Shown: piece by piece, positions 29,768 to 60,050 of the stretch
Layout of the letters: the number at the start of each line of letters is the position of its first letter
Position numbering within the stretch: the first letter of the stretch is position 1
Source: Escherichia phage PNJ-6
Strand: one strand, 5' to 3'
Sequence record: OQ076693
DNA length: 64,000 nt
Made by a program: the position numbers and the translations under genes
The notes under the pieces: generated by a model
Databases searched by the model: none
What the model saw: the letters and a program-made list of their open reading frames with translations, nothing else
What the model was told of the DNA's origin: nothing

Positions 29768-31981
29768 TTATTTGGCCGCTTCCACGGCCTTCATGAATTT
29801 AACGATTTGAGCGACCTGTTCTTTGGAAAGAGTACCACGTCGTCCCATGTATTCTGACACAATATGATAATTGGTTTCGAATTCAATAACCATTTTATCA
29901 TCATTATCGTAAGCATTATCTTTAAGCTTATCGAAAATTTTAGCACACAATTCTAACTTCTTATTCAGGTCTGTATTAGTAGCACCTGCGAATCGATTCC
30001 ATCCCCAACGATTATTTACTGTTGAGAGTTTTGCAAAGTCTTTACTGATTTCTTTGTTCTTAGAGCTAAAATACTTACTAAGGAAGTTAAGCTCTTCGTT
30101 ACGAGTAATATGATTCAAATAAGGCTGTGCTCTACGACTTGGTGATACATACTCATCATAATCCACTTTATCAATTAGCGTAATATAGTCATTAATTGAT
30201 TTTTCGAACAAGCATTCTACTTCACCAAGTTTACGAACTTTCTTAGCAATCTGTGGACGAACTACAGTGAACTCTTTAATACCTGACAAATCGGCAATAC
30301 GGGTCAAGAAATTGGAGTCATAGTTCAACCAACCTTTATCTGCGTCAAGACATTCAGCATTAGAACGATTACGAACTATAGCATAACCTTGGATTTCATC
30401 TGCTTCACTTGCCGGAATAAAGAGGTCTTCTGATACCCAAACATCGTTTTCATTCTTAAAGAATCGATGAGCACTCGGGGATTTAGGACGAGGCTCATTA
30501 GTCCGTTTCCTGACTTCAATCCATGGCTTAACGATTTGTAAAAGCTCTGAAGTCTTGTACATGTTAATGTTGTCGCCATCAAAGATAACTTTAAGGCGTT
30601 CCAGAAGTTTCATTGCATCTTCGTCTGTAGGGTCAACGAATAGTACGCTTTTACCAAAACCGCGTGGAACTTTACCGGATAATTTAACCTCGTCTTTAGA
30701 CATTTCAATTGAATTAAGAGCTCGCATTAATGGAACACGTCCCTTAACGTCGTCAATAACAATTTCAACGTTTTTAATGTTAATGCCAATCAGACTGTTA
30801 ATTGAAATAGTTGCCGATGAGCTACCACTTTCACGAATACGACGAAGACGAGGGGATTCAACGATATCGTATACGACGCCGAGATTACACCATTCAGGTC
30901 CCATTTTAAAACGTTTGTACAACTCAGAATAAGTTAGTTGTTCTTTAGAATATTTCAGAGATTCAATATTAGACCCAGCCCTTTCCATGTATTTGCGAGC
31001 GGTATAGCCAAGAGAATCAATTTCACGGAACACATGACGCGGGTATTTACAATCAATCCATTTCTTAGAATCTTCAGCGAACAGTTTAGCATCGATTTCT
31101 GCAACGCGTTTATGGATATTTGCTACGGTACGTTTATCAAATGACAATGCTTCACGAGACGGGGCGACATCTAGTTCACCCATAGGGAATTTAATATAAG
31201 CTGTAGTGCATCGCGTCATCATCCATGTTTGTTCTTTAATAACACTTCCGATTGGATATACAATACCGCCATAAACAGCCATGATATTACCACGTTCACC
31301 CCATGGAGCTTCCTTGGCTAAATAAACATCATCGAATTCCGGGAAGTATTTGATATCTTTAACACCACGAACTTCTGCAATATCACCTAGAGGACGCATA
31401 ACATATGCAATTTCAGATGCGAACTTTTCAAAATCTTCTGGGTTAACAGGCACAACTACTTCTACACCCGTACGGTCATCAGGACCCATCTTATCTACGA
31501 AGGTCGGCTTAATCTGTGGGCCTGTGTCATCTTGATAAATTACATAACCACGAACTTCACCGTTGTGATAAGACGTAAGGTTAAACGTATCGGTATATGC
31601 TAGTGGAGCTTTAGAGCCGAGTCCGAATCCACCGATGAAATCGTTACTCGATGTTTTAGTTGAAGCAAAATATGAGTTATAGATTCCTGGCTCTTCGTCA
31701 TTACCTCGAATGGTGAAATCACTCATACCAGGACCAAAGTCTCGAACTACAAAACGTGGGTCTAGACGACCTGGAGCCTGAACAATAAACTTATCAGTGC
31801 AACCATTAAGAATTTGGCCATCGATACAGTTTGTGATTAATTCACGTACACAAGCCAATTCTTTGTTTGTATAAAGGTCATTAGACAAAATCTTATAAAC
31901 TTTGCTATTGCCTTGAATAGTAAATGCTGTGCTCTTACCGCCTGAACCAATAATCGTTTCTTTAGCCGTTTCAATAATCAT
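29768..31981 (-). CDS. rIIA: rIIA protein
   Basis: 737-aa ORF immediately upstream of rIIB; T4 rIIA-like N-terminal ATPase-like region. Confidence 0.9.
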   Translation of the reverse strand: MIIETAKETIIGSGGKSTAFTIQGNSKVYKILSNDLYTNKELACVRELITNCIDGQILNGCTDKFIVQAPGRLDPRFVVRDFGPGMSDFTIRGNDEEPGIYNSYFASTKTSSNDFIGGFGLGSKAPLAYTDTFNLTSYHNGEVRGYVIYQDDTGPQIKPTFVDKMGPDDRTGVEVVVPVNPEDFEKFASEIAYVMRPLGDIAEVRGVKDIKYFPEFDDVYLAKEAPWGERGNIMAVYGGIVYPIGSVIKEQTWMMTRCTTAYIKFPMGELDVAPSREALSFDKRTVANIHKRVAEIDAKLFAEDSKKWIDCKYPRHVFREIDSLGYTARKYMERAGSNIESLKYSKEQLTYSELYKRFKMGPEWCNLGVVYDIVESPRLRRIRESGSSSATISINSLIGINIKNVEIVIDDVKGRVPLMRALNSIEMSKDEVKLSGKVPRGFGKSVLFVDPTDEDAMKLLERLKVIFDGDNINMYKTSELLQIVKPWIEVRKRTNEPRPKSPSAHRFFKNENDVWVSEDLFIPASEADEIQGYAIVRNRSNAECLDADKGWLNYDSNFLTRIADLSGIKEFTVVRPQIAKKVRKLGEVECLFEKSINDYITLIDKVDYDEYVSPSRRAQPYLNHITRNEELNFLSKYFSSKNKEISKDFAKLSTVNNRWGWNRFAGATNTDLNKKLELCAKIFDKLKDNAYDNDDKMVIEFETNYHIVSEYMGRRGTLSKEQVAQIVKFMKAVEAAK

Positions 31982-31993
31982 ATTTTTCTCTCA

Positions 31994-32194
31994 TCACAAG
32001 TTACGTTTAAAAATTTCTGCTACTTCAAGAAGTTCTTCTTTAGTAGCTGTATCGGTTTGTATTTTATATCGAATTTCTTTAAAGCGTTCTTTAAAGGACT
32101 CTGCTGACTCGATATCAAAAAATCTTTGGATAAGCCGGAATTCCCGGAGCACAGCTTTATCAAAAAGTTCCAAGTCCACGTTATATGTTCTCAT
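31994..32194 (-). CDS. hypothetical protein
   Basis: 66-aa ORF just upstream of rIIA. Confidence 0.45.
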   Translation of the reverse strand: MRTYNVDLELFDKAVLREFRLIQRFFDIESAESFKERFKEIRYKIQTDTATKEELLEVAEIFKRNL

Positions 32195-32219
32195 AATATT
32201 CTCTTCAGTAGATTCCTAG

Positions 32220-32270
32220 GGCACTATTACTAAAGACCGTATAATCTATCATCTTATGTGTAATAGTGCC
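32220..32270. repeat. 11-bp perfect inverted repeat flanking a 29-nt loop
   Basis: GGCACTATTAC (32220-32230) and GTAATAGTGCC (32260-32270); loop contains TATAAT on the + strand; between the glycosyltransferase gene and the rIIA-proximal ORF. Confidence 0.6.
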
Positions 32271-32286
32271 TCAGGCTATTCAGGAT

Positions 32287-33387
32287 TTACGCTGTGAAGA
32301 TTTTATCCCACATCGCAACAACTGCATCTCGATTATACTTCTTCCATACTGCTTCAGCACGTTTAACTCGAGCTTCGTATGTGTCAGTGAATTCTAATAC
32401 AGCTTTTGTGTAAAGCGCAACTACTTCTTTCTTAGGAGTAGAGGAATCAATTTCTACACGCACAGTATCTGGGTCGTATTCGAATGTCGCATGAGGATAA
32501 TCCTTAAAAACTAACTGGATTACAGGGACACCTTTAGAGATGGCTTCAATAGAACTATTCTCTACCGTACCTGTGTCAGGACACGTATTAATAAGTGCTT
32601 TAGCTGTTTTAAGACGTTCCATGATTTCACTGTGTGGAGCATCAATAATAACAGGATATTTAGCTGGTGGTGCCCATTTGCTTGGACAGTATCCTACACC
32701 ATTTTCGCCTAGTGCTTTAATCGCTTCAAGAGCAACATCAGTACGACGCATTTTAGTGTCATAACGTTGTGCACTAATAATCAGATCAGTCGCCGGGAGA
32801 ACTTCTGGCTTTTCAGTCAAACAAATAACCGGATAATCTTCGGCTTCAAACAACGGATTTGCTCGCCAATAATCATAATCAATTTTGTCAGTCAGAGCTG
32901 AAGTCATATAACAATATTTGCGTTCAAATTCACGGAAGGCTTTAGTAGGAGCATAACTCTTACCACCATTCTTATGAATTTGAATAGTCTGGTCCCAAAT
33001 TTGAACAATGCCACGAGATACCGGTTCAAATGGTGTTGCCATAAAATTCTTATGAACTTTAGAGAGACCTGCGTCTTTAATTGCCTGAACGGTTAGTTTA
33101 GTCGGTTCCATAGTAACAACAAAATCGTATTCATGGATGCCGGCTAGTTCAACAATCTTACGAGCCATAGTATAACTCATACCTAGACTAAATTTAGTCA
33201 GATGCCCAACAGGATGGTGTGTAACTTTCCAGTCACCAAACGTGTCATTATCAAAGCCGATATAATCAATATCAGCACCGATGGACACAAGATATTTCAA
33301 CACATTTAAATGTACTGCTTCAAGACCACCTTGTACACGGTCAGGATTAAATGGGACTGCACGAGATGGGATAAACATAACTTTCAT
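32287..33387 (-). CDS. GT-B fold glycosyltransferase (candidate hmC-DNA sugar transferase)
   Basis: 366-aa ORF; N-terminal Rossmann-like start (MKVMFIPSRAVPF) and C-terminal GT4-like donor-binding motif (TGTVENSSIEAISKGVPVIQ); between rIIA and 39, where T4 has no glycosyltransferase. Confidence 0.65.
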   Translation of the reverse strand: MKVMFIPSRAVPFNPDRVQGGLEAVHLNVLKYLVSIGADIDYIGFDNDTFGDWKVTHHPVGHLTKFSLGMSYTMARKIVELAGIHEYDFVVTMEPTKLTVQAIKDAGLSKVHKNFMATPFEPVSRGIVQIWDQTIQIHKNGGKSYAPTKAFREFERKYCYMTSALTDKIDYDYWRANPLFEAEDYPVICLTEKPEVLPATDLIISAQRYDTKMRRTDVALEAIKALGENGVGYCPSKWAPPAKYPVIIDAPHSEIMERLKTAKALINTCPDTGTVENSSIEAISKGVPVIQLVFKDYPHATFEYDPDTVRVEIDSSTPKKEVVALYTKAVLEFTDTYEARVKRAEAVWKKYNRDAVVAMWDKIFTA

Positions 33388-33413
33388 AATTAAGCCTTAT
33401 TAAAATTAAAATG

Positions 33414-33431
33414 AAGCTCCCTAAGGAGCTT
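33414..33431 (-). terminator. hairpin overlapping the gene 39 stop codon
   Basis: AAGCTCC-CTAA-GGAGCTT; minus strand continues CAUUUUAAUUUU; the glycosyltransferase ATG is about 30 nt further downstream. Confidence 0.45.
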
Positions 33432-35247
33432 AGGACATCCATTCTTTACGAAGTTCTGAATCATCACCCAACAACATTTCAAAGAGTTCTTTCCAATTTT
33501 CAGGAAGTTTAACTACGTCGTACACAGGGTTCTGAATCATTTCACGATATTCTGACTTTTCAAGGGAGCCCAATCCTTTGATGTATCGAATACTATGCTT
33601 AGGCAGTGTATCTTTAGCTTCTTCGTACTCAGCTACAGTATAAAACCATTTTTGAGTTTTGCCAATTTGTGCAATAATTACAGGCGTTTTAACAAAGCGA
33701 ATACGTCCTTGTTCAAACAATTCAGGCCAATTACTAAAGAAAGCAAGCAAAGCCGGATAAATACTTCCAAGACCGTCATGATCGGCATCGGTCATAATCG
33801 CAATATTACGATAGTTCGTGTTCTCTGCCTTTTCACCAAGAATAAGACCTGTGATAGCACAGATATCAAAGAGCTCTTTGTTCTTCATCATATCAGCATA
33901 TGACATACCCCAGCTATTCATCACCTTACCACGTAATGGGAATCCACCGTGTAGTTCACGGTCACGAACATCAATGAGATAACCAATTGCCGAATCACCT
34001 TCTGTTAAGAACAATGTCGTATCTGCATCTTTACCACATTGGTTAGCTTTAATATGCTTATGAACCTTAGCTTTAGTTGCCTTTTTAGCTGCTTTAGTTT
34101 CTGCAGCCTTTTCTGCCGCCAATTTACGAGCTAATGCTGCTTCGACAATAGGCATAATCAAGGCTTCGTTTTTAAGAAGTGCCTGAGCAATTTTCTTAGC
34201 ATCTAATTGGATATGATTACGAATATCACCATACGTTGACGTTAAACGTTCTTTAGTCTGAGAATCAAAACGCATGTTGCTCATGTCTCTAATAAACATC
34301 AACATTGTGAGGCATTCTTTAACACGAGCTTTAGTGACTTCAATACCCTTATATTTCTTTTTAATACCCGGCAAAAGATGTTCGCAGATATCATCCATTA
34401 CACATTCAACATGATGACCACCGTTTTTAGTATGGATGTTATTCACATAAGTTAAATGACGGAAGCCGTCTGGTGATGTTGTGAATGCTATAGAGACTTT
34501 ATCATTTTCTTGAATAATGTTATCTTCACCAAATTGTTTAGCAAATCGTTTAAAATTACCATCAACCTTTTTACCATTAAATGTGAACTTGATATCAGGA
34601 TAAACGACTGCCAATGTTTGAAGTCGGTCTAAAGTAATATCTAAATAAATTTGAGATAAATTATGTTCTTCAAATGAAGAGAAATCAGGAGTGAAGATTA
34701 CTTTAGTGCCTTTACCTTTAGATTTCTTAGAAGACCATGATTTGTTTTCCATTCCGTTTGAACAGTTAACAGTGATTTCATTTTCACCATCTGACGTTAT
34801 GCCTGTAAACAACGTAGAGAAGATATTAGTTAAACTACTCCCGACGCCGTTCATACCACCAGTCTTACGTTCAGAGTCATCGCCAAAGTTACCGCCAGCC
34901 TTTGGAATAGTCCAGGCTGCTACAGGCCCAGGAATTTGTTCGCCTGTTTGGTCGGTAACTAAACCTTGAGGAATACCACGTCCGTTATCTTCCACCGAAA
35001 CTTGATTATTTTTAATTTGCACATCAATTTTATTTGCAAACTTAAATGATGTACGAATAGCTTCATCAACCGAGTTGTCAATAATCTCATCGATTAATTT
35101 AACCAGACCAGGAACATATTCAACTTGTTGATATTTACCAAACAAAAAACGCTCGTGGGCTTCTTTGGCCGAAGAACCAATATACATGCCACTACGTTTC
35201 TTAATATGTTCTACATCTGACAATACCTTAATTTCATTTTTAATCAT
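33430..35247 (-). CDS. 39: DNA topoisomerase II large subunit (GyrB-like ATPase + TOPRIM), single uninterrupted ORF
   Basis: 605-aa ORF; GHKL motifs (IDNSVDEA; DNGRGIP; GMNGVGSS) and TOPRIM (LTEGDSA; IMTDADHDG); one ORF covers what T4 splits between genes 39 and 60. Confidence 0.9.
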   Translation of the reverse strand: MIKNEIKVLSDVEHIKKRSGMYIGSSAKEAHERFLFGKYQQVEYVPGLVKLIDEIIDNSVDEAIRTSFKFANKIDVQIKNNQVSVEDNGRGIPQGLVTDQTGEQIPGPVAAWTIPKAGGNFGDDSERKTGGMNGVGSSLTNIFSTLFTGITSDGENEITVNCSNGMENKSWSSKKSKGKGTKVIFTPDFSSFEEHNLSQIYLDITLDRLQTLAVVYPDIKFTFNGKKVDGNFKRFAKQFGEDNIIQENDKVSIAFTTSPDGFRHLTYVNNIHTKNGGHHVECVMDDICEHLLPGIKKKYKGIEVTKARVKECLTMLMFIRDMSNMRFDSQTKERLTSTYGDIRNHIQLDAKKIAQALLKNEALIMPIVEAALARKLAAEKAAETKAAKKATKAKVHKHIKANQCGKDADTTLFLTEGDSAIGYLIDVRDRELHGGFPLRGKVMNSWGMSYADMMKNKELFDICAITGLILGEKAENTNYRNIAIMTDADHDGLGSIYPALLAFFSNWPELFEQGRIRFVKTPVIIAQIGKTQKWFYTVAEYEEAKDTLPKHSIRYIKGLGSLEKSEYREMIQNPVYDVVKLPENWKELFEMLLGDDSELRKEWMS

Positions 35248-35298
35248 GTTGTCTCCTCGTTATGAAGGTATTCTATCATCCGAAATCTAAAGCAAAAA

Positions 35299-35310
35299 GG
35301 GCCGAAGCCC
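35299..35310 (-). terminator. hairpin terminator after ORF 35311..35733
   Basis: GGGC-CGAA-GCCC followed on the minus strand by UUUUUGCUUU. Confidence 0.5.
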
Positions 35311-51893: not shown

Positions 51894-52235
51894 TTAAAAG
51901 AATTTAAATTTTTTCTTGGTCCGTTCATTAAAAGCTTGTTGTACTTGCATTGTAACACATTTTTCAACATGTGGTGCAAGTTCTGCTTTTCTGTCCTGGT
52001 CAAGAACTGCAAAGTCCATTACGATTTTACCATCAACCCAGTCTAGTTTTGTAATATAGACTATATGATGAGAACCATCTTCAAGTGTAATCAGAATCTC
52101 TTGAATGACATTTTCCATTGCTGAACGGATAATTTTAAGAGATTCATTAAACACTCGTTCTTTGCGAATGTCTTCCCCTTCCGAAGAAGGGGATTCATCA
52201 ACGATTTCTAGATTTAAATCATCGAGATTATTCAT
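51894..52235 (-). CDS. small protein at the gene 40 position
   Basis: ORF 51894..52256 trimmed to internal ATG (MNNLDDLNLEIV...); between uvsX and 41 where T4 gene 40 lies; call by synteny and size only. Confidence 0.45.
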   Translation of the reverse strand: MNNLDDLNLEIVDESPSSEGEDIRKERVFNESLKIIRSAMENVIQEILITLEDGSHHIVYITKLDWVDGKIVMDFAVLDQDRKAELAPHVEKCVTMQVQQAFNERTKKKFKFF

Positions 52236-53400
52236 CGAAATCTTCCATTTCGTCAAGGTCGTTTTCTATATCTGCTGCAGACGGAGCATCAGAAGTTTTA
52301 ACCGGAACTTTAGTTGTTGCTTTGCAATTAATAAGGTCGTTAACAGCGTCATCAACTTCTTTAATAGAAGAGATAGCACCTAGTTTATATTTAGTTTCAA
52401 TTGCATCTCGGAAAGGTTTGTGTTTAAACAACGGTCCCCAGAATTCTACACAATCAGTAGCTTTAGCACGCCATGATTTTTCTTCACGAATCATTTCGCC
52501 TGTTTCTTCGTCAAGGAATTCTCGAGCATACCACCCGGCTTTAGGCTTAACTACAAAACCAATTTCAGTTGCCATTTCTAACAAGCCACTGAATGGGTCA
52601 ATACCACCATCGAAATTAACCGTGATTGGGAAAGTAGATTTTTCTTTAACGGTGCGAGATTTTTCTGCTTTCAACGTGAAGTCATAACCGGTCAATTCTG
52701 TACCTTCTTTAACCTGACGTTTAGAGATAAAGAATACAGTGTTAGCAGAGTAAAGAATACCTGTACCACCACCCATAATCTCTTTAGGATACAATCCGCC
52801 GATTTCCATTGCTGTATGGTTGATTGCAACACATGGAATATCTTTAATAGTCAGATAAGGAGTCACAATGCGGAACAGAGATTTAAGTGCCTTAGCACGA
52901 GACATATCACCTACAACTTTCTCGTTCAATGCATCTTCAGTTTCTTTCTTAGATGCAGTATTACCGATTGAATCGATAAAGATAATAACTTTATCACCGC
53001 GTTCAATCGCGTCAAGCTGATTAGTCATATCAACTTTAAGTTGTTCGACAGATTGAATCGGAGTATGAACTACACGGTCTAAATCAACACCCATTGAACG
53101 AAAATAAGATTCTGAAGCACCAAATTCCGAATCATAGAACAAACAAATTGCATCTTTATATTTCTTCATATATGCTGCAACCATGGTCAGTCCAAACAAC
53201 GTTTTAAAGTGTTTAGAAGGAGCAGCAAAAATAGTTAAGCCTGATTGCAACCCAGCATTCAGTGCACCACCTAATGCAATATTCAACATCGGAATACGAG
53301 TAGGGACTTCATCACGATTATTAAACAGCTTAGACTTAGTCAAGTCTGCAGTCATTTTAGAAGTAGAAGCTTTAATCAGACGAGATTTTAAATCAGACAT
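52228..53400 (-). CDS. uvsX: recombinase UvsX (RecA/Rad51 family)
   Basis: 390-aa ORF; Walker A-like P-loop (FAAPSKHFKT), RecA core, acidic C-terminus (DLDEMEDFDE). Confidence 0.9.
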   Translation of the reverse strand: MSDLKSRLIKASTSKMTADLTKSKLFNNRDEVPTRIPMLNIALGGALNAGLQSGLTIFAAPSKHFKTLFGLTMVAAYMKKYKDAICLFYDSEFGASESYFRSMGVDLDRVVHTPIQSVEQLKVDMTNQLDAIERGDKVIIFIDSIGNTASKKETEDALNEKVVGDMSRAKALKSLFRIVTPYLTIKDIPCVAINHTAMEIGGLYPKEIMGGGTGILYSANTVFFISKRQVKEGTELTGYDFTLKAEKSRTVKEKSTFPITVNFDGGIDPFSGLLEMATEIGFVVKPKAGWYAREFLDEETGEMIREEKSWRAKATDCVEFWGPLFKHKPFRDAIETKYKLGAISSIKEVDDAVNDLINCKATTKVPVKTSDAPSAADIENDLDEMEDFDE

Positions 53401-53499: not shown

Positions 53500-54048
53500 T
53501 TAACGAGCCCATTTGATAATTTCTGTAATCAAATTATTACGTTCGCTTGCATTAAATCCTATAACTTTGTTAGCACCATCATGATTAAGTAATTGATACG
53601 TTTGGATTTCGTTATGAATTGCAAACTCTTCAAAATACGAAATGACTGTATTAAACCTGAATGAAGACAAAGTAATAAGGTCGTCTTCAAAACTTTCAGT
53701 CATTTCGTTACGTGTTAAAATAATTGTGAACACATCATGGTTTTGGCAAAGACGAACATAATCCTGTTCATAAACGTCAAGAACCGAGTCCGCATCTTGT
53801 CGAATACGTCCATAAACCCAGTTACTAATATATCCACGGTCTAACAGATAAATCTTAGTAGGGTCTAAATAATTCAACATCGTTTCGAAACAGCCAACTT
53901 CATTTCGAGACTTAACATCGAAACGTCCATCAACTGTTCGTTTAGGGAAATCAATCTTTACATATCTTTCACTAATTTCCATTATGTCATTAATGAAAGT
54001 TGTTTTACCAGCATTATCCGGGCCATCTACTAAAATAATTTTAGCCAT
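53500..54048 (-). CDS. P-loop kinase-like protein
   Basis: 182-aa ORF with N-terminal Walker A (ILVDGPDNAGKTT), like small nucleoside/nucleotide kinases; occupies part of the T4 beta-gt interval between uvsX and 42. Confidence 0.5.
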   Translation of the reverse strand: MAKIILVDGPDNAGKTTFINDIMEISERYVKIDFPKRTVDGRFDVKSRNEVGCFETMLNYLDPTKIYLLDRGYISNWVYGRIRQDADSVLDVYEQDYVRLCQNHDVFTIILTRNEMTESFEDDLITLSSFRFNTVISYFEEFAIHNEIQTYQLLNHDGANKVIGFNASERNNLITEIIKWAR

Positions 54049-54049
54049 T

Positions 54050-54949
54050 TTATTCCTCGATTACGACATCTTCATATTTAGGTATATTATACGGCGAAGA
54101 AATTAAAGCATTAAAGTAGATGAACTCGCCAAGACCTGGATGGAATACTTCTTCAGGATTTTCGAAGTATTGAATCTTCGGACGTCCTTTAAGAATTTGA
54201 TAGTACTCAGTTTTAGTTGGTTTAAAAATTCGAATCAGCGCTTCTTCAGGATACTTATTTCTGTCGAAGCTATTATTTGGATCGGTTATATAAAGCGGTT
54301 GACCTAATTGAATTGCACATTCAACCACTTGTTCAAAACGATAGCACGGGTCACTAATTCGAAATGGATGAAAAATACCATCTAGATGAATAGGAGCCAA
54401 ATCACCTACAAGACGCTGCATGATGGAAGGACGTATAACTTTCTGCGTTACGATAATCTTATTACCATCTGCACCTGCGTTAACCAGCACTTCTTTTTGA
54501 CGTTCATTCAACACAGTAGTTTGAAGTGAACGATTAACAGACAACATGTCGGTTTTTAAGAATTCGTCAATATAAAAACGTGGTTTATTAGGGTCTGCAG
54601 TGATATTGAAATTGAATTCTACGTCAAAATTGCCGTCATATCCAGTGATATCTGTGATTAGAAAATCACAATCATAATAATCAATTAATGAATCAACCAC
54701 AAATTCATTTTCAGACCAGAAATATTTACGAGTGTTATATGCGTTATCTTTATACCATAATGGAACAAACTTAAATTCTGGGAAAAGACGTTCGCATTCT
54801 TTAATATCAGATGCATTACGTGGATATGTAATCACATCACCCGGATTAGCACGGTGCAAATGAAGTTGGAAGTTGCCATCCTTAAGGATAGCATACTGTC
54901 CAGTTTCATAAGACCGCATACTCAAGATAGGTACGCGGAAAATAGCCAT
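54050..54949 (-). CDS. hypothetical protein (in place of T4 beta-glucosyltransferase)
   Basis: 299-aa ORF immediately upstream of gene 42, overlap-coupled; no recognisable motif by eye. Confidence 0.5.
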   Translation of the reverse strand: MAIFRVPILSMRSYETGQYAILKDGNFQLHLHRANPGDVITYPRNASDIKECERLFPEFKFVPLWYKDNAYNTRKYFWSENEFVVDSLIDYYDCDFLITDITGYDGNFDVEFNFNITADPNKPRFYIDEFLKTDMLSVNRSLQTTVLNERQKEVLVNAGADGNKIIVTQKVIRPSIMQRLVGDLAPIHLDGIFHPFRISDPCYRFEQVVECAIQLGQPLYITDPNNSFDRNKYPEEALIRIFKPTKTEYYQILKGRPKIQYFENPEEVFHPGLGEFIYFNALISSPYNIPKYEDVVIEE

Positions 54950-55665
54950 TAGACAAGGAATCCTTTAACATAATCAAAATCACGTTCAAACACATGGGCA
55001 CTTACCATGGTATGAGTATAATCACCAACTTCTACACCACATTCGTTAGCGATATAATGAAGTAATTTTCCTTGGAGATAAAAATCCAACTGCATAACAA
55101 CAGCACAGTTCTGAGAACGCATATGACAGTGGGTATAAAGCTTACCATCACGAATATAATAAGTCACTGAGTCAGTACATGGATATTCAAGTGTTTCGTC
55201 TGAATCAAGCAAAGCCTGATCAGAACTTTCTAGAATTTGGAACACAACTCTTCGAGAGTTAGGTTTTTCTTTAAGTTCTTTTAGAAGAGTTGGTAACTGG
55301 GCCGCAATGCGAGGACCATAGAAAGTGTTGAAGTTTGCAGGCAAAGCGTCTGATTTAGGTTTAGAAATAAATTTAGCGACGTTAGGATATGCCTTAAATG
55401 CTTCTTTTGCATCAGTACCACCAGAAATCATAAATTTCCAGAAATCTTCAGCATATTCATAAGAGATGCGATTAATACGTGGGTCGGTCATTTTGAATGA
55501 TGAAGGGGTATCAACAACTACTGTCATAGACCCAATTTCATTACAACGTCCAATACGAGAATCAGTAACGAACTGTGGATTTTCTAAAATTTCACGATTG
55601 ACAGCTTTAAATGCGGATTGAAAATCTGCGGCTTTAATATATTTCATTGTGTTATGTTTTCCCAT
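54949..55665 (-). CDS. 42: dCMP hydroxymethylase (thymidylate synthase fold)
   Basis: 238-aa ORF with TS-fold catalytic-cysteine region (LEYPCTDSVTYYIRDGKLYTHCHMRSQN); synteny uvsX...42...43. Confidence 0.72.
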   Translation of the reverse strand: MGKHNTMKYIKAADFQSAFKAVNREILENPQFVTDSRIGRCNEIGSMTVVVDTPSSFKMTDPRINRISYEYAEDFWKFMISGGTDAKEAFKAYPNVAKFISKPKSDALPANFNTFYGPRIAAQLPTLLKELKEKPNSRRVVFQILESSDQALLDSDETLEYPCTDSVTYYIRDGKLYTHCHMRSQNCAVVMQLDFYLQGKLLHYIANECGVEVGDYTHTMVSAHVFERDFDYVKGFLV

Positions 55666-55683
55666 GTTTACCTCAATACAGTT

Positions 55684-55708
55684 ATTATATACTCAATTCA
55701 TAAAGCTT
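55684..55708 (-). promoter_or_regulatory. possible MotA-dependent middle promoter for gene 42
   Basis: Minus-strand AAGCTTTA (near match to the MotA box) 11 bp upstream of TATAAT (rc of 55684-55689); about 20 nt upstream of the gene 42 ATG. Confidence 0.3.
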
Positions 55709-55785
55709 ATTTGAATTTCTTAGCGATGTTGATATAACGTAAAGCTTCAGCATCGATATTTCCAAGAACACTATGAAGAAATGCA

Positions 55786-55947
55786 TCAGCGTAGTATTCT
55801 AGTTGAACAGGTTTCTTTAATCACTTTAGCCGCTTTAGTTTCAAACAGGCCCATAAGGGCCTTTTTAAGAATTTGTTCGTTGCTGTTAATTTTAATAGTC
55901 AAAATCTCTTCGTTAAGTTGGTGGTTAAAAGTTTTTCTAGAAATCAT
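55786..55947 (-). CDS. small ORF (53 aa) coupled to the upstream cassette gene
   Basis: Below ORF-track cutoff; ATG overlaps the stop of ORF 55944..57104 (ATGA); contains a GGCCC-TTAT-GGGCC hairpin, so it could instead be a terminator region. Confidence 0.25.
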   Translation of the reverse strand: MISRKTFNHQLNEEILTIKINSNEQILKKALMGLFETKAAKVIKETCSTRILR

Positions 55948-57104
55948 TCTGGGTACCTCAAAGCGTCATCAGAGTTAGTTATATCAATAATAGATATAGA
56001 GTTTTCTGATAACCCATTTTTAGATAACTGACGTTTATAATATCTTTCACAATATGTACACGTCGTCCCGCAGATTTCATTAGCACAATCGAAATCTGGA
56101 TGTTTGAACCACCTTTTTTCTAAAAAGCCATCTAACAAAGAGGTTTCAATATTTACCGTATGTGAAAACTCAGTCTCATTTTCAAGAGTGAAAATGGTCT
56201 CTAAAGGCTTCCACAATTCCAACAAATTACCTTCAAACTTTTCAGAAGCGTAAGCTTCAAGAACTTTCAAAATGTAGTCGGTGCTACCTGTACGTCCTGA
56301 AACTTTAAATTGAGTGATACCAATATCATTATAAAGTTTCAAATCTTGGGGACGAACAAAACGAGTTCTCAACCAGTTAAATGGGTCTGTATCACGAGCT
56401 TTAATACAGTGCTGCATAGGATATCCATTTAAGGATTTAGCATCATCAGCTGTAACATCAGTACTATGGAAAATATAGCAAGAGTCACGATAGCTACAAT
56501 GTGTTGTATACCCTTTACCAGCATTAGAACAGAACTCATTTACAAGAACTTCAAATATTATATTGTTCTTATTACAAAACTCTGCTGCACGCTTCAGGAA
56601 AGAAACTGAACGGTTCTTATGAATTCCACAGCAGACCTTTTTGATATTATATTGGTCATGCAAGTATTTGATTTGAGTTACAGCATCGACATGTAGAATT
56701 GTTGAAACTTCAATCTCAATGTCTTTATTGACTTCACGAACAATTTCCATAACAACAGGGTTAGCGATAGTAATACGCCATACGCCTATTGACCAAAGAT
56801 ACTGAACATAATCCTGAATAGCTTTCTTCTTCCACTCAACTAGTTCTCTTTTTGAACCAGGATTTATCGTGTTGAGTGTATAGTTAAAGCAAATACCTAA
56901 TTCGTTACAACGTTTAACGTAATCTTCTAACATCTTTTTGTCAACGTCAGGAAGCCTAAAATCAGGTCTGGCTGCTACAAAAGCCATTTCTCTTGTAGAG
57001 CCGTATACTTCGTTTATCAAGCTATTAGGATAAGTTTTATTGAGCTCTACGATTTTATCAAGAAGAGCTAAATCAAAATTCGTTCCGATTTTAAAAGTAT
57101 TCAT
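55944..57104 (-). CDS. Cys-rich protein, distant peptidase-U32-like resemblance; function unknown
   Basis: 386-aa ORF; segment FEVLVNEFCSNAGKGYTTHCSYRDSC resembles the U32 signature; C-terminal cysteine cluster CANEICGTTCTYCERYY; first gene downstream of the sugar cassette. Confidence 0.35.
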   Translation of the reverse strand: MNTFKIGTNFDLALLDKIVELNKTYPNSLINEVYGSTREMAFVAARPDFRLPDVDKKMLEDYVKRCNELGICFNYTLNTINPGSKRELVEWKKKAIQDYVQYLWSIGVWRITIANPVVMEIVREVNKDIEIEVSTILHVDAVTQIKYLHDQYNIKKVCCGIHKNRSVSFLKRAAEFCNKNNIIFEVLVNEFCSNAGKGYTTHCSYRDSCYIFHSTDVTADDAKSLNGYPMQHCIKARDTDPFNWLRTRFVRPQDLKLYNDIGITQFKVSGRTGSTDYILKVLEAYASEKFEGNLLELWKPLETIFTLENETEFSHTVNIETSLLDGFLEKRWFKHPDFDCANEICGTTCTYCERYYKRQLSKNGLSENSISIIDITNSDDALRYPE

Positions 57105-57161
57105 TTTTTTTGCATCTCACGTTAATTGACGCGATGGTTTTTGCAGGTCTTACTTAAATTA

Positions 57162-57563
57162 TTATAGATTCGGTTTATATGATTTAAATGTTTCGAATTC
57201 GCCTTTATTCATAAGAGCTTTGAATTCGTCAGGACGCATAGCTTTATCGTCGATAATCCAATCATATACTGGTTTATGTGTTAGCAAATTATGGTACTTC
57301 AAGCCAATGTTTGCCAAGTTCTGAATCAGACTTGGGAGAATGTCAATTGCTATACGACCAGGACCGACTGACTTCATACCGCGAGCAGTGTAAAGCGTTA
57401 TGGTATGCCCTGCATCATACAGGGCATTAATGGCAGACACCATTTCGACGTCTGGTTTGAAGTTCACGTAATCACGATTGTTATTCCACTCTGTTATACA
57501 ATCATCGACATCAAAACAAAGATTAAGCATGTTTTCTACACGGTGCATTAGATTCGTTCCCAT
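57162..57563 (-). CDS. HAD-superfamily phosphatase (minimal)
   Basis: 133-aa ORF with HAD motif I DxDxT (LCFDVDDCITEW), motif II-like TARG, motif IV-like acidic pair (YDWIIDDKA). Confidence 0.6.
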   Translation of the reverse strand: MGTNLMHRVENMLNLCFDVDDCITEWNNNRDYVNFKPDVEMVSAINALYDAGHTITLYTARGMKSVGPGRIAIDILPSLIQNLANIGLKYHNLLTHKPVYDWIIDDKAMRPDEFKALMNKGEFETFKSYKPNL

Positions 57564-59233
57564 TGATGAGTGATATCGCCACCGATTGGACGATAAGAAA
57601 CACCAGTTTCTTTATCAGTTAGTACCCATTTACCAGGATTTTTTGTAATCAGAGTAGCCGTTACAGGTTCTGCTACGTCATAACTAATAGAGCCGTCCTG
57701 AAGTACACGGCCCATGTTACGTAATTGCTTAGTCAGAAGTTCCATACCTTTATAATATGCGGCTACCGCTTTAAGTGGATTATTCTTGAAATAACCACCT
57801 AATGCAATCCAGATAATTGCCACTGCCAAATGATGATACTCGTTAAACGAACTCATCTTTCCATATTTGTAAACTAATGGATTGATGTTAATAGTCACAT
57901 TACAAGTTGTTTCATCAATAGTAAACTGGCCCCAGGTCGGATTAGCGTTGAATTCATCATAACCTGAAACAGCATAAAGCACTTTAGCTTCATCGTACAA
58001 TTTTGGCCCGTAAATCTTGGTTTCGCCAAAATATCCACGAGGGTCGATAAACTTGACTTCACCGTTATCAGTAATCATAGTATTACTGAAGTTCGGGTCG
58101 CCATGAATAACAGAGTACTGTCCCTGAGAACGGTTATGATAACGAATAAGATGTTCTAAAGCTTGTTTCAGCATTGGCTTCAGACGCCCAATCTTAGTGT
58201 AGTTCACATGTGTGATTTTACCAAATGAATCAATCAATGGTTGAATACTTTCACAACGATCAATAACTTTCGTATAGAATTCTTTAGTGAAATCACGGCG
58301 AACAGTTTCAGGACTTACAAAATAAGTGTCTGTGCTGAATTTCAGTGCATCTAAAATTGCATCAACAATTTGTGGACGAGCAAGACTCGATTTGGATTTA
58401 ATATATTCAAATGCCGGCTTACCTTTAATGCGTTCCATTTCAAAGTTATTTTCATTAACAGAAACTAACTGAGGAACTGAATCTGATTTCACTTTAAGAT
58501 ACCATGAAATCTCATCTTTCTGAAGAGCTCGACCCTGTTCGGTTAATGCGAATTTAGTTACAGTTTCTTCACCAATTTCAACTGCATTAAAACTACGATT
58601 AAGTTCACGAACTTCATGAGCTTTTTCAAGTTTAGGCATATCACCTAAATCAATTAGATTCATAAGCTCTGATTTATTGAATGCACTGCCGTAAAGAAAT
58701 TCTACGAAATCACGTCCTTTGCAGTATTCATGAATTTCCTCATCAGTAGAGCCCATATAGAATTCCCAGTCTTTGAACTGATAAATTCCTACAACATTAC
58801 CACCTGTTGAACCTACGTTAGTGATATTTTCACCGTCGAAATTATATCGGCATTCGTCACCCTTAACATAGATTGCGTTAACATTCCAAGACCATGAACC
58901 GAAATCAGGAATAATATCACACCAGTTAACAATTACATTATGGCCGTCTAAATCTTTGTGTAATTTAGCAAGAGCATAAGCAGAACCATACGCTTCATCA
59001 ACTGTACGAATAGTCACATTGAACCCTTCTTGCTCACAATAAGCTCGAACAGTTTCAGCAAATTTTGAATGAACTACTACAATAATTTCATCTGCGCCAA
59101 GGTCAGAATAAATTGTATACAAATTGCTCAGAATAGTGTCTTGTTTATAGTTAACAAGCACCTTAGGAATATGATGCGTTATTGGATACAAACGAGTTGC
59201 CAGTCCAGCACCAAGAATAACAGCTTTTTTCAT
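57548..59233 (-). CDS. bifunctional sugar kinase / sugar-1-phosphate nucleotidyltransferase
   Basis: 561-aa ORF; N-terminal NTP-transferase signature (MKKAVILGAGLATRLYPIT...PKVLV); C-terminal APH/choline-kinase-type motif (VIHGDPNFSNTMITDNGEVKFIDPRG); overlaps the HAD gene by 16 nt. Confidence 0.7.
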   Translation of the reverse strand: MKKAVILGAGLATRLYPITHHIPKVLVNYKQDTILSNLYTIYSDLGADEIIVVVHSKFAETVRAYCEQEGFNVTIRTVDEAYGSAYALAKLHKDLDGHNVIVNWCDIIPDFGSWSWNVNAIYVKGDECRYNFDGENITNVGSTGGNVVGIYQFKDWEFYMGSTDEEIHEYCKGRDFVEFLYGSAFNKSELMNLIDLGDMPKLEKAHEVRELNRSFNAVEIGEETVTKFALTEQGRALQKDEISWYLKVKSDSVPQLVSVNENNFEMERIKGKPAFEYIKSKSSLARPQIVDAILDALKFSTDTYFVSPETVRRDFTKEFYTKVIDRCESIQPLIDSFGKITHVNYTKIGRLKPMLKQALEHLIRYHNRSQGQYSVIHGDPNFSNTMITDNGEVKFIDPRGYFGETKIYGPKLYDEAKVLYAVSGYDEFNANPTWGQFTIDETTCNVTININPLVYKYGKMSSFNEYHHLAVAIIWIALGGYFKNNPLKAVAAYYKGMELLTKQLRNMGRVLQDGSISYDVAEPVTATLITKNPGKWVLTDKETGVSYRPIGGDITHQWERI

Positions 59234-59414
59234 GTTGTGGTCCTCATTGGTAAGTAGGAGTATTGTACACTATTCTAGTTAAAGCATTCATACTTTGCTT
59301 GTAGTCCAATCATAATCCATCCGATTACAAGTGTTGGAATCATTACTGGAGCTTAACGGCTCCAGTAGATAGTCATGACAAGCATCAATAGTAAAAGTCC
59401 TATTGTTATTGCTT

Positions 59415-60050
59415 TCATTGTTCGCCTCGTAACATGGCACCTAGTGCACCGCCAGGGTGGAACTTAAGGAAGTCATTAGAGGTAAATCCACGTTCAGACG
59501 AAAGGTTGATAGCAAACGTATCGATAAGCGCTAACAACAATGTAGTGGACATGGTCGGAGCCAGAGAATTCTCATCAACCTCTACTGCGATGCCTGTACA
59601 GAAAGAGTAATCAAAAAGGGCTTCATTTTCTTGTGGAATGTCTGGGTTACAATGCAACAGAATCTGTTTGACGTTCGGACGAATCATTTTAAGATGCTTA
59701 GCCACACCTATCATTTCTTCAGTTTTACCAGAACGACTAATATGAATCAACACATCATTAGGCGCAATGAATCCTGCATCACCGTGAGAATAATGCCCTG
59801 TGTTCAAGTACATACTCGGGATACCGAGTGAAGCAAATGTCTCAGAAGCTTTAGTTGCAATATTAGCATTCTTACCAACACCTGTAATAATTACTCGGCT
59901 TTCATAATTACTAAGTCCCGGGCGTCGAAGAGTTTCTAGAATAGCATTATAACGAGCAGGGTTTTGACTAATTACTTTGGCCATAGCGGCCAAAGAAGAA
60001 GCTTGTTTTATGATTGCGTCAATAGCGATAGTAATAGGAGTAGTTTTCAT
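59415..60050 (-). CDS. SIS-domain sugar-phosphate isomerase (arabinose-5-phosphate isomerase-like)
   Basis: 211-aa ORF with KdsD/GutQ-type SIS motifs (ITGVGKNANIATK; HISRSGKTEE; LAPTMSTT; HPGGALG); no CBS domains. Confidence 0.75.
   Translation of the reverse strand: MKTTPITIAIDAIIKQASSLAAMAKVISQNPARYNAILETLRRPGLSNYESRVIITGVGKNANIATKASETFASLGIPSMYLNTGHYSHGDAGFIAPNDVLIHISRSGKTEEMIGVAKHLKMIRPNVKQILLHCNPDIPQENEALFDYSFCTGIAVEVDENSLAPTMSTTLLLALIDTFAINLSSERGFTSNDFLKFHPGGALGAMLRGEQ

Follow-up and report, generated by a model that had tools for sequence, protein, structure and literature searches.

We analysed a window of 64,000 nucleotides from Escherichia phage PNJ-6 (record OQ076693), a phage of the Mosigvirus (RB69-like) type. 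Between rIIA and gene 39 there was an ORF of 366 aa with an ATG start on the minus strand, as described in the initial annotation. The genes at the locus are:

29768..31981, minus strand: rIIA (ORF reading)
31994..32194, minus strand: rIIA.1-like ORF, 66 aa (ORF reading)
32287..33387, minus strand: glycosyltransferase gene, RB69 ORF003c/gp3 orthologue, candidate second (beta-1,3) DNA arabinofuranosyltransferase (ORF, identity, PHROG, dN/dS)
33430..35247, minus strand: gene 39, the unsplit topoisomerase II large subunit, 605 aa, upstream neighbour (ORF and RB69 annotation)

The order rIIA.1, 366-aa ORF, gene 39 was in agreement with the RB69 annotation and was the same in phages SSE1, mobillu and G2469. 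We found the rIIA.1-ORF003c-39 locus in 163 phage records. The dN/dS of the ORF was 0.04–0.12 (six Mosigvirus orthologues), showing a gene under strong purifying selection and not an accidental reading frame. Its G + C content (0.398, against 0.375 in the window) gave no sign of a recent foreign origin. At the corresponding position T4 has gene 60, 60.1 and mobA, and no glycosyltransferase, as had been stated before; the T4 beta-gt lies between segA/uvsX and gene 42.

Identity, fold and donor site of the 366-aa protein

The protein was identical to RB69p003 (NP_861693.1) in 361 of its 366 residues and matched PHROG 8302 with positions 1–366 of 366 (E 5.7e-222). Judged by sequence, the gene is the same as RB69 ORF003c/gp3. 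It shared 99% identity over 366 residues both with the RB69 protein and with the “phage HY126 glycosyltransferase” in the PDB, deposited as apo form (9IQZ) and with UDP (9IR0); the UDP complex is known from the title of the 9IR0 entry. RB69 has the gene at the same position, with the same flanking hairpins, and differs from PNJ-6 in the five protein substitutions and in one hairpin loop (UUCG there, UUAG in PNJ-6).

The gene has already been published, as have its family and structure, and its detection here is a rediscovery. Mahler et al. 2025 (Cell Host Microbe), He et al. 2026 (Nat Chem Biol) and Lee 2026 have reportedly described the gene or the system. RB69 ORF003c was put forward as an arabinosyltransferase in 2018, and a remote HHpred similarity to the T4 glucosyltransferases was given (Thomas 2018, PMC6024577). 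An assignment of the RB69 gp3 family as second transferase has also been proposed (PMC13326640, PMC13390438).

The ORF003c family is very small (5 clusters at 90% identity; at 50%, about 10 representatives). For this reason the AF2 model was of low confidence (pLDDT 59.9), and we used it for fold-level matching only. In the PDB fold search it matched 9IQZ with a TM of 0.72, followed by BshA, PimA, PglA and MshA at about E 1e-8. There were 224 matches at E ≤ 0.001, the top 50 listed being GT-B glycosyltransferases and related GT-B-fold enzymes, e.g., UDP-GlcNAc 2-epimerases. The viral fold search agreed with a GT-B fold, and its matches included a cyanophage “DNA alpha-GT” (E 2e-5). The fold match comprised two Rossmann-like domains with an interdomain cleft. 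Since the model matched 9IQZ and then GT-B/GT4 enzymes, the initial annotation, made from the sequence, was right in calling the protein a GT-B glycosyltransferase whose C-terminal nucleotide-binding motif is GT4-like.

The motif, TGTVENSSIEAISKGVPVIQ (residues 272–291), was invariant in the six closest family members and nearly so in 13. With its conserved Glu281 it aligned with the donor-binding motif of a protein passing Pfam Glycos_transf_1, the two having the C-terminal ...E-A-x-x-x-G-x-P-V motif in common. From the E-x7-E pair, the second Glu (E281) was conserved and aligned. The position of the first was occupied by Thr272, with a one-residue insertion; Glu276 is found four residues past Thr272 and five before E281.

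Profile searches gave no family. The Pfam scan of the 366-aa protein had no match even at E ≤ 10, below the gathering threshold of CAZy GT4/PF00534, and the NCBIfam scan had none either. The PDB profile scan returned no glycosyltransferase family besides the near-identical PDB entry. A sub-threshold GT4-conflict match (E 0.0028) was present in two of the 13 family members, and no member reached any Pfam or NCBIfam glycosyltransferase threshold. The bacterial GT4 enzymes (PimA, BshA, MshA, PglA) were thus the best non-self matches by structure, but with about 12–14% identity, with Pfam thresholds that the phage protein does not reach, with a first E-x7-E Glu that is not aligned in it, and with acceptors other than its predicted one, DNA.

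Arabinose cluster and a second GT-B-fold protein

The interval between uvsX and gene 42, where T4 has its beta-gt, had been described as holding unrelated genes, and the 366-aa ORF was named the best transferase candidate by elimination. We found in this interval a second GT-B-fold protein, a synthase and a UDP-arabinose pathway. The genes of the cluster are:

53500..54048, minus strand: kinase-like protein, 182 aa, at the RB69p045 position (weak dTMP-kinase match)
54050..54949, minus strand: GT-B-fold protein, 299 aa, at the T4 beta-gt position, RB69 gp46:47 homologue, candidate first arabinosyltransferase (AF2 and Foldseek)
54949..55665, minus strand: thymidylate-synthase homologue with a 5-hydroxy-dCMP synthase signature (Pfam Thymidylat_synt and residue signature)
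55944..57104, minus strand: Peptidase_U32-family protein, 386 aa, within the cluster (Pfam PF01136, E 7e-11)
57162..57563, minus strand: HAD-type phosphatase, 133 aa, RB69 gp51 / HY126 AfhF analogue (NCBIfam capsule-biosynthesis phosphatase, E 4e-13; role from PMC13326640)
57548..59233, minus strand: bifunctional nucleotidyltransferase/kinase, 561 aa, RB69 gp52:53 / HY126 AfhE analogue (Pfam NTP_transferase and kinase-like matches)
59415..60050, minus strand: SIS-domain arabinose-5-phosphate isomerase homologue, 211 aa, at the RB69 gp55 position (Pfam SIS, E 1e-10; PMC13326640 Table 1)

RB69p045 was termed a nucleotide kinase (PMC13326640 Table 1), and the AfhE-type nucleotidyltransferase/kinase makes UDP-arabinofuranose (PMC13326640).

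The base in RB69-type phage DNA is arabinosylated 5-hydroxycytosine (5hoC; PMC13326640, PMC13390438). In agreement, the thymidylate-synthase homologue of the window had MRSQN where T4 gp42 has MRSND, with Asn at T4 Asp171 and the Asp at T4 Asp179 kept; an Asp-to-Asn change (D169N) is the diagnostic signature of 5-hydroxy-dCMP synthases (PMC13326640). The initial annotation had proposed a transferase placing a sugar on hmC. A sugar modification of cytosine was thus rightly recognized, the base being 5-hydroxycytosine instead. The expectation of a sugar other than glucose was also correct: it is arabinose, at which the proposed assay with NDP-arabinose had hinted. Arabinosylated 5-hydroxycytosine guards RB69-type DNA against restriction enzymes and CRISPR-Cas (PMC13390438, PMC13326640), and exposes it to type IV restriction enzymes such as BrxU.

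The 299-aa protein had no Pfam or NCBIfam match. Its AF2 model (pLDDT 95) had a GT-B-type fold, with Foldseek matches to UDP-GlcNAc 2-epimerases and MshA/GT4 at E 1e-6 to 1e-5. As the best fold matches include epimerases besides transferases, its role as a transferase is itself putative. Members of its family occurred in 348 phage records; those listed (40) came from many genera, mostly with the gene beside one of thymidylate-synthase type. Proteins of this type are the literature candidate for the first transferase (PMC13326640, PMC13390438). With such a protein adjoining the 5-hydroxy-dCMP synthase at the T4 beta-gt position, reasoning by elimination does not hold, and the 366-aa protein is more likely the second than the first transferase.

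The ORF003c family was found in 211 phage records, from Mosigvirus, Acinetobacter phages and one Tegunavirus. Acinetobacter phage Berthold encoded two tandem paralogues (Berthold_074/075), with 43% and 40% full-length identity to the 366-aa protein. Both are inside the arabinose cluster, in the order isomerase, NDP-sugar pyrophosphorylase, phosphatase, ThyA homologue, 311-aa GT, kinase, GT, GT, which is the order given for DLP3 gp83 to gp76 (PMC13326640). DLP3 gp76/gp77 belong to the same family, in the same range of identity (40–43%). These phages have the two copies in tandem within the cluster and add a third sugar, whereas Mosigvirus, with one distant copy at ~21 kb from the cluster, goes no further than two sugars. 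The family is thus linked to the 5-hydroxy-dCMP synthase and UDP-Araf genes, by the position of the Berthold paralogues and by the full cluster in the window (53500–60050).

A non-DNA target, for instance a phage protein or a glycan of the host envelope, is barely credible for the 366-aa protein. Its distance from the cluster in Mosigvirus, and the lipids and small molecules on which its closest structural relatives (PimA, BshA, MshA) act, would fit a role unrelated to cytosine modification. However, the Acinetobacter phage paralogues lie within the arabinosylation cluster, DNA is the substrate of their DLP3 counterparts, and the family is confined to phage groups with poly-arabinosylated DNA, the single Tegunavirus record apart.

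Candidate order of arabinose transfer

The longest arabinose chain is one sugar in Thanatos, two in Mosigvirus (RB69-type) and three in Acinetobacter phages (PMC13326640, PMC13390438). The first linkage is alpha and the second beta (PMC13326640). In virion DNA of phage NP, mono- and di-arabinosylated bases coexist at 1:4 (PMC13390438). With UDP-Araf in vitro, DLP3 gp76 and gp77 together added a third Araf to RB69 DNA; no single DLP3 transferase was active, and 5hoC-DNA was not arabinosylated in vitro (PMC13326640).

We counted no ORF003c family member in Thanatos, one in Mosigvirus and two in Acinetobacter phages, the zero meaning that no Shewanella record was among the family matches, with Thanatos-2 present in the collection searched. 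Copy number therefore tracks chain length (0/1/2 copies, 1/2/3 arabinoses), a correlation that rests on three lineages. Because of this, and because the Acinetobacter relatives add the third arabinose, the 366-aa protein, as the Mosigvirus ORF003c/gp3 orthologue, is probably the second, chain-extending arabinosyltransferase of the 5hoC pathway. The DLP3 division of labour may not transfer directly, since Mosigvirus has one copy and the DLP3 pair is needed together.

In the pathway that we propose, the thymidylate-synthase homologue would make 5-hydroxy-dCMP, and the base would then be incorporated into phage DNA. The genes for isomerase, kinase/uridylyltransferase and phosphatase, located between uvsX and gene 43, would provide UDP-arabinofuranose. 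The 299-aa GT-B protein would place the first alpha-D-Araf on the 5-hydroxyl. The 366-aa protein would act on replicated phage DNA, as a soluble, UDP-binding GT-B enzyme, and would use UDP-Araf to attach a second Araf at O3 of the first sugar. The expected product is beta-D-Araf-(1-3)-alpha-D-Araf-5-hydroxycytosine, the dominant form in RB69-type DNA, which it shields from nucleases.

That the 366-aa protein instead initiates the chain on 5-hydroxycytosine in DNA, in line with Thomas 2018 and the initial annotation, or performs both steps, leaving another role to the 299-aa protein (e.g., a UDP-sugar epimerase-like or nucleotide-level one), appears unlikely. ORF003c was the original candidate in the literature (PMC6024577), no glycosyltransferase of the pathway other than the 366-aa type has a structure on deposit, this structure binds UDP, and the first step was not reconstituted in vitro (PMC13326640). 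The top fold matches of the 299-aa protein, UDP-GlcNAc 2-epimerases, point the same way. Thanatos, however, is mono-arabinosylated without an ORF003c member, and its single ara-GT is syntenic with the 299-aa type (PMC13326640). Phage records from several other genera, e.g., phages of Klebsiella, Serratia, Yersinia and Proteus, had the ThyA homologue and the 299-aa protein, and gave no ORF003c match. An alpha and then a beta linkage would be hard for one active site, and the DLP3 family members extend existing arabinose chains (PMC13326640).

The joint requirement for gp76 and gp77 in DLP3 (PMC13326640) and the coexistence of mono- and di-arabinosylated bases in phage NP (PMC13390438) would also suit a protein with no catalytic step of its own. 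Such a protein would adjust processivity or the mono:di ratio, either in obligate partnership with the 299-aa transferase or as a scaffold in the form of a homo-oligomer. We consider this quite unlikely: the nucleotide-binding motif and the glycine loop were kept across the ORF003c family, the 99% identical protein was crystallised with UDP, and purifying selection covered the whole 366-aa protein.

A chain-extending transferase has a functional analogue, though by function only, in the beta-glucosyl-HMC-alpha-glucosyltransferase of T2/T6, which adds a second sugar to a sugar on DNA and forms gentiobiosyl. That enzyme differs from the 366-aa protein in using glucose, hmC and another linkage, and we detected no sequence relationship between the two. 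With the T4 alpha- and beta-glucosyltransferases the 366-aa protein shares the GT-B fold, UDP-sugar donors and, as target, a hydroxyl on a 5-substituted cytosine in double-stranded DNA. It differs from them in genome position, in the predicted donor (UDP-Araf) and in the predicted acceptor (arabinosyl-5hoC, not hmC). Homology to the T4 enzymes was not found by Pfam at E ≤ 10, and neither was among the top 50 listed PDB or viral fold matches.

Which transferase adds which sugar is relevant to phage engineering, phage therapy and the making of defined modified DNA substrates, and these subjects are already being studied. What the present analysis adds is a correction and not a discovery: the base is 5-hydroxycytosine, a second GT-B enzyme lies at the beta-gt position, and the 366-aa protein probably performs the second step.

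Flanking RNA elements and expression

Four non-coding features surround the glycosyltransferase gene and gene 39:

32215..32275, minus strand: inverted repeat between the glycosyltransferase stop and the rIIA.1 start (core 11 bp perfect, arms 16 nt, loop 29 nt)
33395..33398, minus strand: Shine-Dalgarno-like AAGG, 7 nt upstream of the ATG (direct sequence reading)
33414..33431, minus strand: hairpin AAGCTCC-TTAG-GGAGCTT, 7 bp, overlapping the gp39 TAA stop and followed by CATTTTAATTTT (sequence and folding)
35270..35296, minus strand: T4 middle-promoter-like site TTTGCTTTA-N12-TAGAAT, just upstream of gene 39 (consensus match only, by regex)

The AAGG is in the 42-nt intergenic stretch, in which six genomes differed in 1 column. 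Between the end of the gene 39 stop hairpin and the glycosyltransferase ATG there are 26 nt. Its loop was UUAG in PNJ-6 and UUCG in five relatives; in a test of whether this change alters hairpin stability, the predicted energies were the same (−10.7 against −10.5 kcal/mol). Record MK327934 lists the hairpin as a putative terminator, and its form resembles that of a weak intrinsic terminator or an RNA-stability element. The hairpin is conserved. Its existence and its overlap with the stop, both noted in the initial annotation, were borne out, whereas the regulated readthrough proposed with it found no support.

Downstream, the 11-bp perfect repeat reported earlier (GGCACTATTAC/GTAATAGTGCC, at 32220–32230 and 32260–32270) was real, conserved and unique in the window, with a match in 0 of 100 shuffles. 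It extends to 16-nt arms with 88% complementarity and a fold of −25.6 kcal/mol (z = −3.3), and no T-run follows it. Phage AV115 had perfect 16-bp arms, and the element was found in Mosigvirus records only. Five of the 92 columns were variable in this intergenic segment, against 102 of the 366 third codon positions. Both non-coding segments flanking the gene were far more conserved than synonymous sites. Rfam had no family in the window, and near the locus gave one chance-level match only.

Regex scans of the coding strand at 31900–34000 detected no T4 early, middle or late promoter consensus, and sigma-70-type matches were at chance level (6 found, 5.8 expected). Going upstream from the glycosyltransferase gene, the first T4-type promoter consensus was the MotA-box-like site at 35296, preceded by a GGGC-UUCG-GCCC hairpin (35299–35310). 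Having no T4-type promoter of its own, the gene must be transcribed through the gene 39 stop hairpin. Gene 39 and the glycosyltransferase gene are probably one transcription unit, which would be read from the middle-type and from upstream early promoters, via the weak terminator-like hairpin.

The placement of the gene, far from the arabinose cluster, and its flanking hairpins could also act as a dosage device, in which partial readthrough from gene 39 sets the amount of the second transferase and, with it, the ratio of mono- to di-arabinosyl bases. We regard this as highly unlikely; the strong conservation of both flanking segments is compatible with it and does not demonstrate it. If true, readthrough from gene 39 would set the mono:di ratio of virion DNA, about 1:4 in phage NP.

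The 92-nt downstream element occurred twice in phage JK45. We considered a mobile cassette junction and dropped it, the second copy being part of a plain 503-bp tandem duplication of the 3′ end of the gene and the intergenic element.

The 366-aa ORF and its fold

The initial annotation placed a GT-B glycosyltransferase gene between rIIA and gene 39, at a position where T4 has none. The ORF listing of the window contained the same frame, in the following neighborhood:

33430..35247, gp39, 605 aa, upstream of the ORF
32287..33387, minus strand, 366-aa ORF with an ATG start
31994..32194, rIIA.1-like ORF, 66 aa, downstream
29768..31981, rIIA, downstream

A dN/dS of 0.04-0.12 among six Mosigvirus orthologues indicated that the ORF is a functional gene. 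In T4 this position is taken by gene 60, 60.1 and mobA. The gene is already known and is not a discovery: 361 of its 366 residues match RB69p003 ("RB69ORF003c"), encoded at the same rIIA.1-X-39 position in RB69. The 1.5-kb locus was found in 163 phage records with 90-99% nucleotide identity, mostly from Escherichia and Shigella phages, and the records examined were classed as Mosigvirus.

Two PDB chains, 9IQZ and 9IR0, were 99% identical to the protein. In the fold library they were titled "phage HY126 glycosyltransferase" and, for the latter, "with UDP", both released on 2025-07-16. Apart from these, Pfam, NCBIfam and a family profile run against PDB sequences gave no match, and PHROGs placed the protein in an unannotated family. 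This family is very small. In a set of 5.8 billion proteins it formed 5 clusters at 90% identity, and in a set of 1.84 billion it had ~10 representatives at 50%.

The AlphaFold model was poor (pLDDT 59.9, alignment of six sequences), and it still recovered the GT-B fold called from sequence. Its best match was 9IQZ (TM 0.72), followed by the GT-B/GT4 enzymes BshA, PimA, PglA and MshA (E ~1e-8), and a search of viral models returned glycosyltransferases from Rhizobium and Sinorhizobium phages. The GT4-like donor motif (residues 272-291) also held up. A distant relative, P0018, exceeded the Pfam Glycos_transf_1 threshold and aligned at 35% over residues 248-352, with its LEALSRGVP opposite IEAISKGVP. 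Of the E-x7-E motif, the second Glu (E281) was conserved and the first was absent at the aligned position. Formal membership of the 366-aa protein in GT4 or Pfam Glycos_transf_1 was not found. Like the T-even DNA glucosyltransferases, it is a GT-B protein predicted to use a UDP-sugar on DNA, but it is not a member of their family at the sequence level. By analogy, the T2/T6 second-sugar enzyme would be nearest in role, again without sequence-level membership.

The arabinosylation cluster and the modified base

In T4, beta-gt is flanked by uvsX/segA and gene 42. The genes at this position in the window had been described as unrelated, leaving the 366-aa ORF as the transferase by elimination. 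Between uvsX (52228..53400) and gene 43 (60091..62802) we found instead an arabinosylation cluster:

53500..54048, minus strand, 182-aa kinase-like protein
54050..54949, minus strand, 299-aa protein
54949..55665, minus strand, ThyA homologue
55944..57104, minus strand, U32-family protein
57162..57563, minus strand, HAD-type phosphatase
57548..59233, minus strand, 561-aa nucleotidyltransferase/kinase
59415..60050, minus strand, SIS-domain isomerase

The set corresponds to RB69 gp45-gp55, the cluster for UDP-arabinofuranose and arabinosylation (PMC13326640). The 299-aa protein had no Pfam or NCBIfam match and no close structure in the PDB copy searched. Its model (pLDDT 95, 49-sequence alignment) had a compact GT-B-type fold, best matched by UDP-GlcNAc 2-epimerases, MshA and other GT4 enzymes (E 1e-6 to 1e-5). 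The elimination argument fails, because this second GT-B-fold protein occupies the beta-gt position.

The proposed acceptor, 5-hydroxymethylcytosine (hmC), did not stand either. RB69 DNA bears mono- and di-arabinosylated 5-hydroxycytosine (5hoC), as determined by MS/MS and NMR (Lee et al., NAR 2026, PMC13326640). The main species is beta-D-Araf-(1-3)-alpha-D-Araf-5-hydroxy-dC, and 5-hydroxy-dCMP is supplied by a flavin-dependent thymidylate-synthase homologue (PMC13326640). The Durham-collection paper finds arabinosylated 5hoC in Mosigvirus NP as well (mono:di ratio 1:4) and calls the "ara-hmC" assigned earlier erroneous (PMC13390438). In the window, the gene-42 homologue (54949..55665) aligned MRSQN with MRSND(171) of T4 gp42 and retained Asp179. 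Because this is the D169N change (E. coli numbering) diagnostic of 5hodCMP synthases (PMC13326640), the phage is predicted from its sequence to make 5hoC, not hmC.

The Peptidase_U32-family protein (386 aa) was 82-87% identical among the listed records of Klebsiella, Pectobacterium, Yersinia, Edwardsiella, Serratia and Shewanella phages, a conservation far above that of the neighboring 299-aa protein, whose family is diverse (138 clusters). No Acinetobacter phage was among the 221 records with the U32 protein. It had a weak match to UbiU and a C-terminal C-x4-C-x3-C-x2-C cluster. U32 proteins (RlhA, TrhP, UbiU/V) perform O2-independent hydroxylations, including that to ho5C in rRNA. By this analogy, the phage protein could supply 5-hydroxycytosine under anaerobic conditions, in which the O2-dependent flavin enzyme cannot function. 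Lee et al. name it only "sugar or heterocycle reductase" (PMC13326640), and no link between U32 proteins and phage 5hoC was found in the literature searched.

Assignment of the arabinose step

The two GT-B proteins differed in distribution. The 299-aa family was found in 348 phage records from many host genera, in the listed records mostly adjoining a thymidylate-synthase-type gene. The ORF003c family was found in 211 records, only from Mosigvirus, Acinetobacter phages and one Tegunavirus.

Table. Copies of the ORF003c family and longest arabinose chain (chain lengths from PMC13326640, and from PMC13390438 for the Mosigvirus di-arabinose)
Shewanella phage Thanatos: 0 copies; chain of 1 (mono)
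Mosigvirus: 1 copy; chain of 2 (di)
Acinetobacter phages of DLP3 type: 2 copies in tandem; chain of 3 (tri)

Thanatos has one ara-GT, of the 299-aa type, and the ORF003c query matched no Shewanella record, though Thanatos-2 was in the searched collection. Acinetobacter phage Berthold had two paralogues of the 366-aa protein (43 and 40% identity), at the positions of DLP3 gp77 and gp76 as matched by cluster gene order. Purified DLP3 gp76 and gp77 with UDP-Araf put a third Araf on RB69 DNA; no DLP3 transferase worked singly, and attempts did not reproduce the first step in vitro (PMC13326640). The proposed order is gp46:47 first and gp3 second (PMC13326640; PMC13390438). A secondary source describes Bas46 deleted for "the arabinosyltransferase Aat" only as sensitised to a defence system. 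The nested distribution, the copy number tracking chain length and the biochemistry of the DLP3 relatives lead us to favor, with reasonable though not strong confidence, the hypothesis that the 366-aa protein is the second-step, chain-extending arabinosyltransferase.

Flanking structures and expression

Both structures reported around the gene were present. The hairpin AAGCTCC-TTAG-GGAGCTT (33431-33414) shares bases with the gp39 stop, and 26 nt lie between its end and the ATG. Its 7-bp stem, energy of about -10.7 kcal/mol and interrupted U tract resemble those of a weak terminator; in one GenBank record it carries a terminator annotation. The loop is UUAG in the window and UUCG in five relatives, with unchanged predicted energy; in relatives, a C(UUCG)G hairpin marks the gene 39/glycosyltransferase junction. 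The 11-bp perfect inverted repeat downstream (32220-32270) was unique in the window and found in 0 of 100 shuffles. Its arms reach 16 nt (-25.6 kcal/mol, z = -3.3), and in Escherichia phage AV115 two adjacent substitutions turn them into a perfect 16-bp stem (-35.3 kcal/mol).

Across six Mosigvirus genomes, 1 of 42 columns varied in the upstream intergenic segment (33388-33429) and 5 of 92 in the downstream one (32195-32286), against 102 of 366 third codon positions of the ORF (Fisher p = 5e-5 and 8e-7, respectively). Variation in both flanks was thus far below that of synonymous sites and comparable to that of non-synonymous sites, showing that the flanking structures are real and constrained. 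They may act in termination, RNA stability, RNA processing or translational control, among other possible roles. The 92-nt downstream element had no Rfam match and was found only in Mosigvirus records.

On the coding strand, 31900-34000 contained no match to the early, middle or late promoter consensus of T4, and generic sigma-70 matches were at chance level. The nearest T4-type site was a MotA-box-like TTTGCTTTA-N12-TAGAAT (35296-35270, minus strand), immediately upstream of gene 39. The glycosyltransferase gene therefore probably shares a transcript with gene 39, in which case RNA polymerase would have to read through the hairpin at the stop codon of gene 39; regulated readthrough there, as first suggested, is a conjecture. 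Around the MotA-box-like site (35270-35310, minus strand), a GGGC-UUCG-GCCC hairpin with a T run directly follows the stop of a 140-aa ORF, and the site follows at once.

In AV115 (1-400 of its locus, corresponding to window 33388-33787), the glycosyltransferase gene is immediately preceded by a homing-endonuclease CDS, where other phages have the 3' end of gene 39. The junction still has the final 12 nt (TGGATGTCCTAA) together with the hairpin. T4 mobA and the gene 39/60 split fall at the same place, which suggests a preferred site of mobile-endonuclease insertion. In Shigella phage JK45 (329-923 of its locus), the last 130 codons of the glycosyltransferase gene and the 92-nt intergenic element occur twice in tandem, an apparent duplication of 503 bp. 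It yields an annotated 136-aa ORF, and both intergenic copies are identical.
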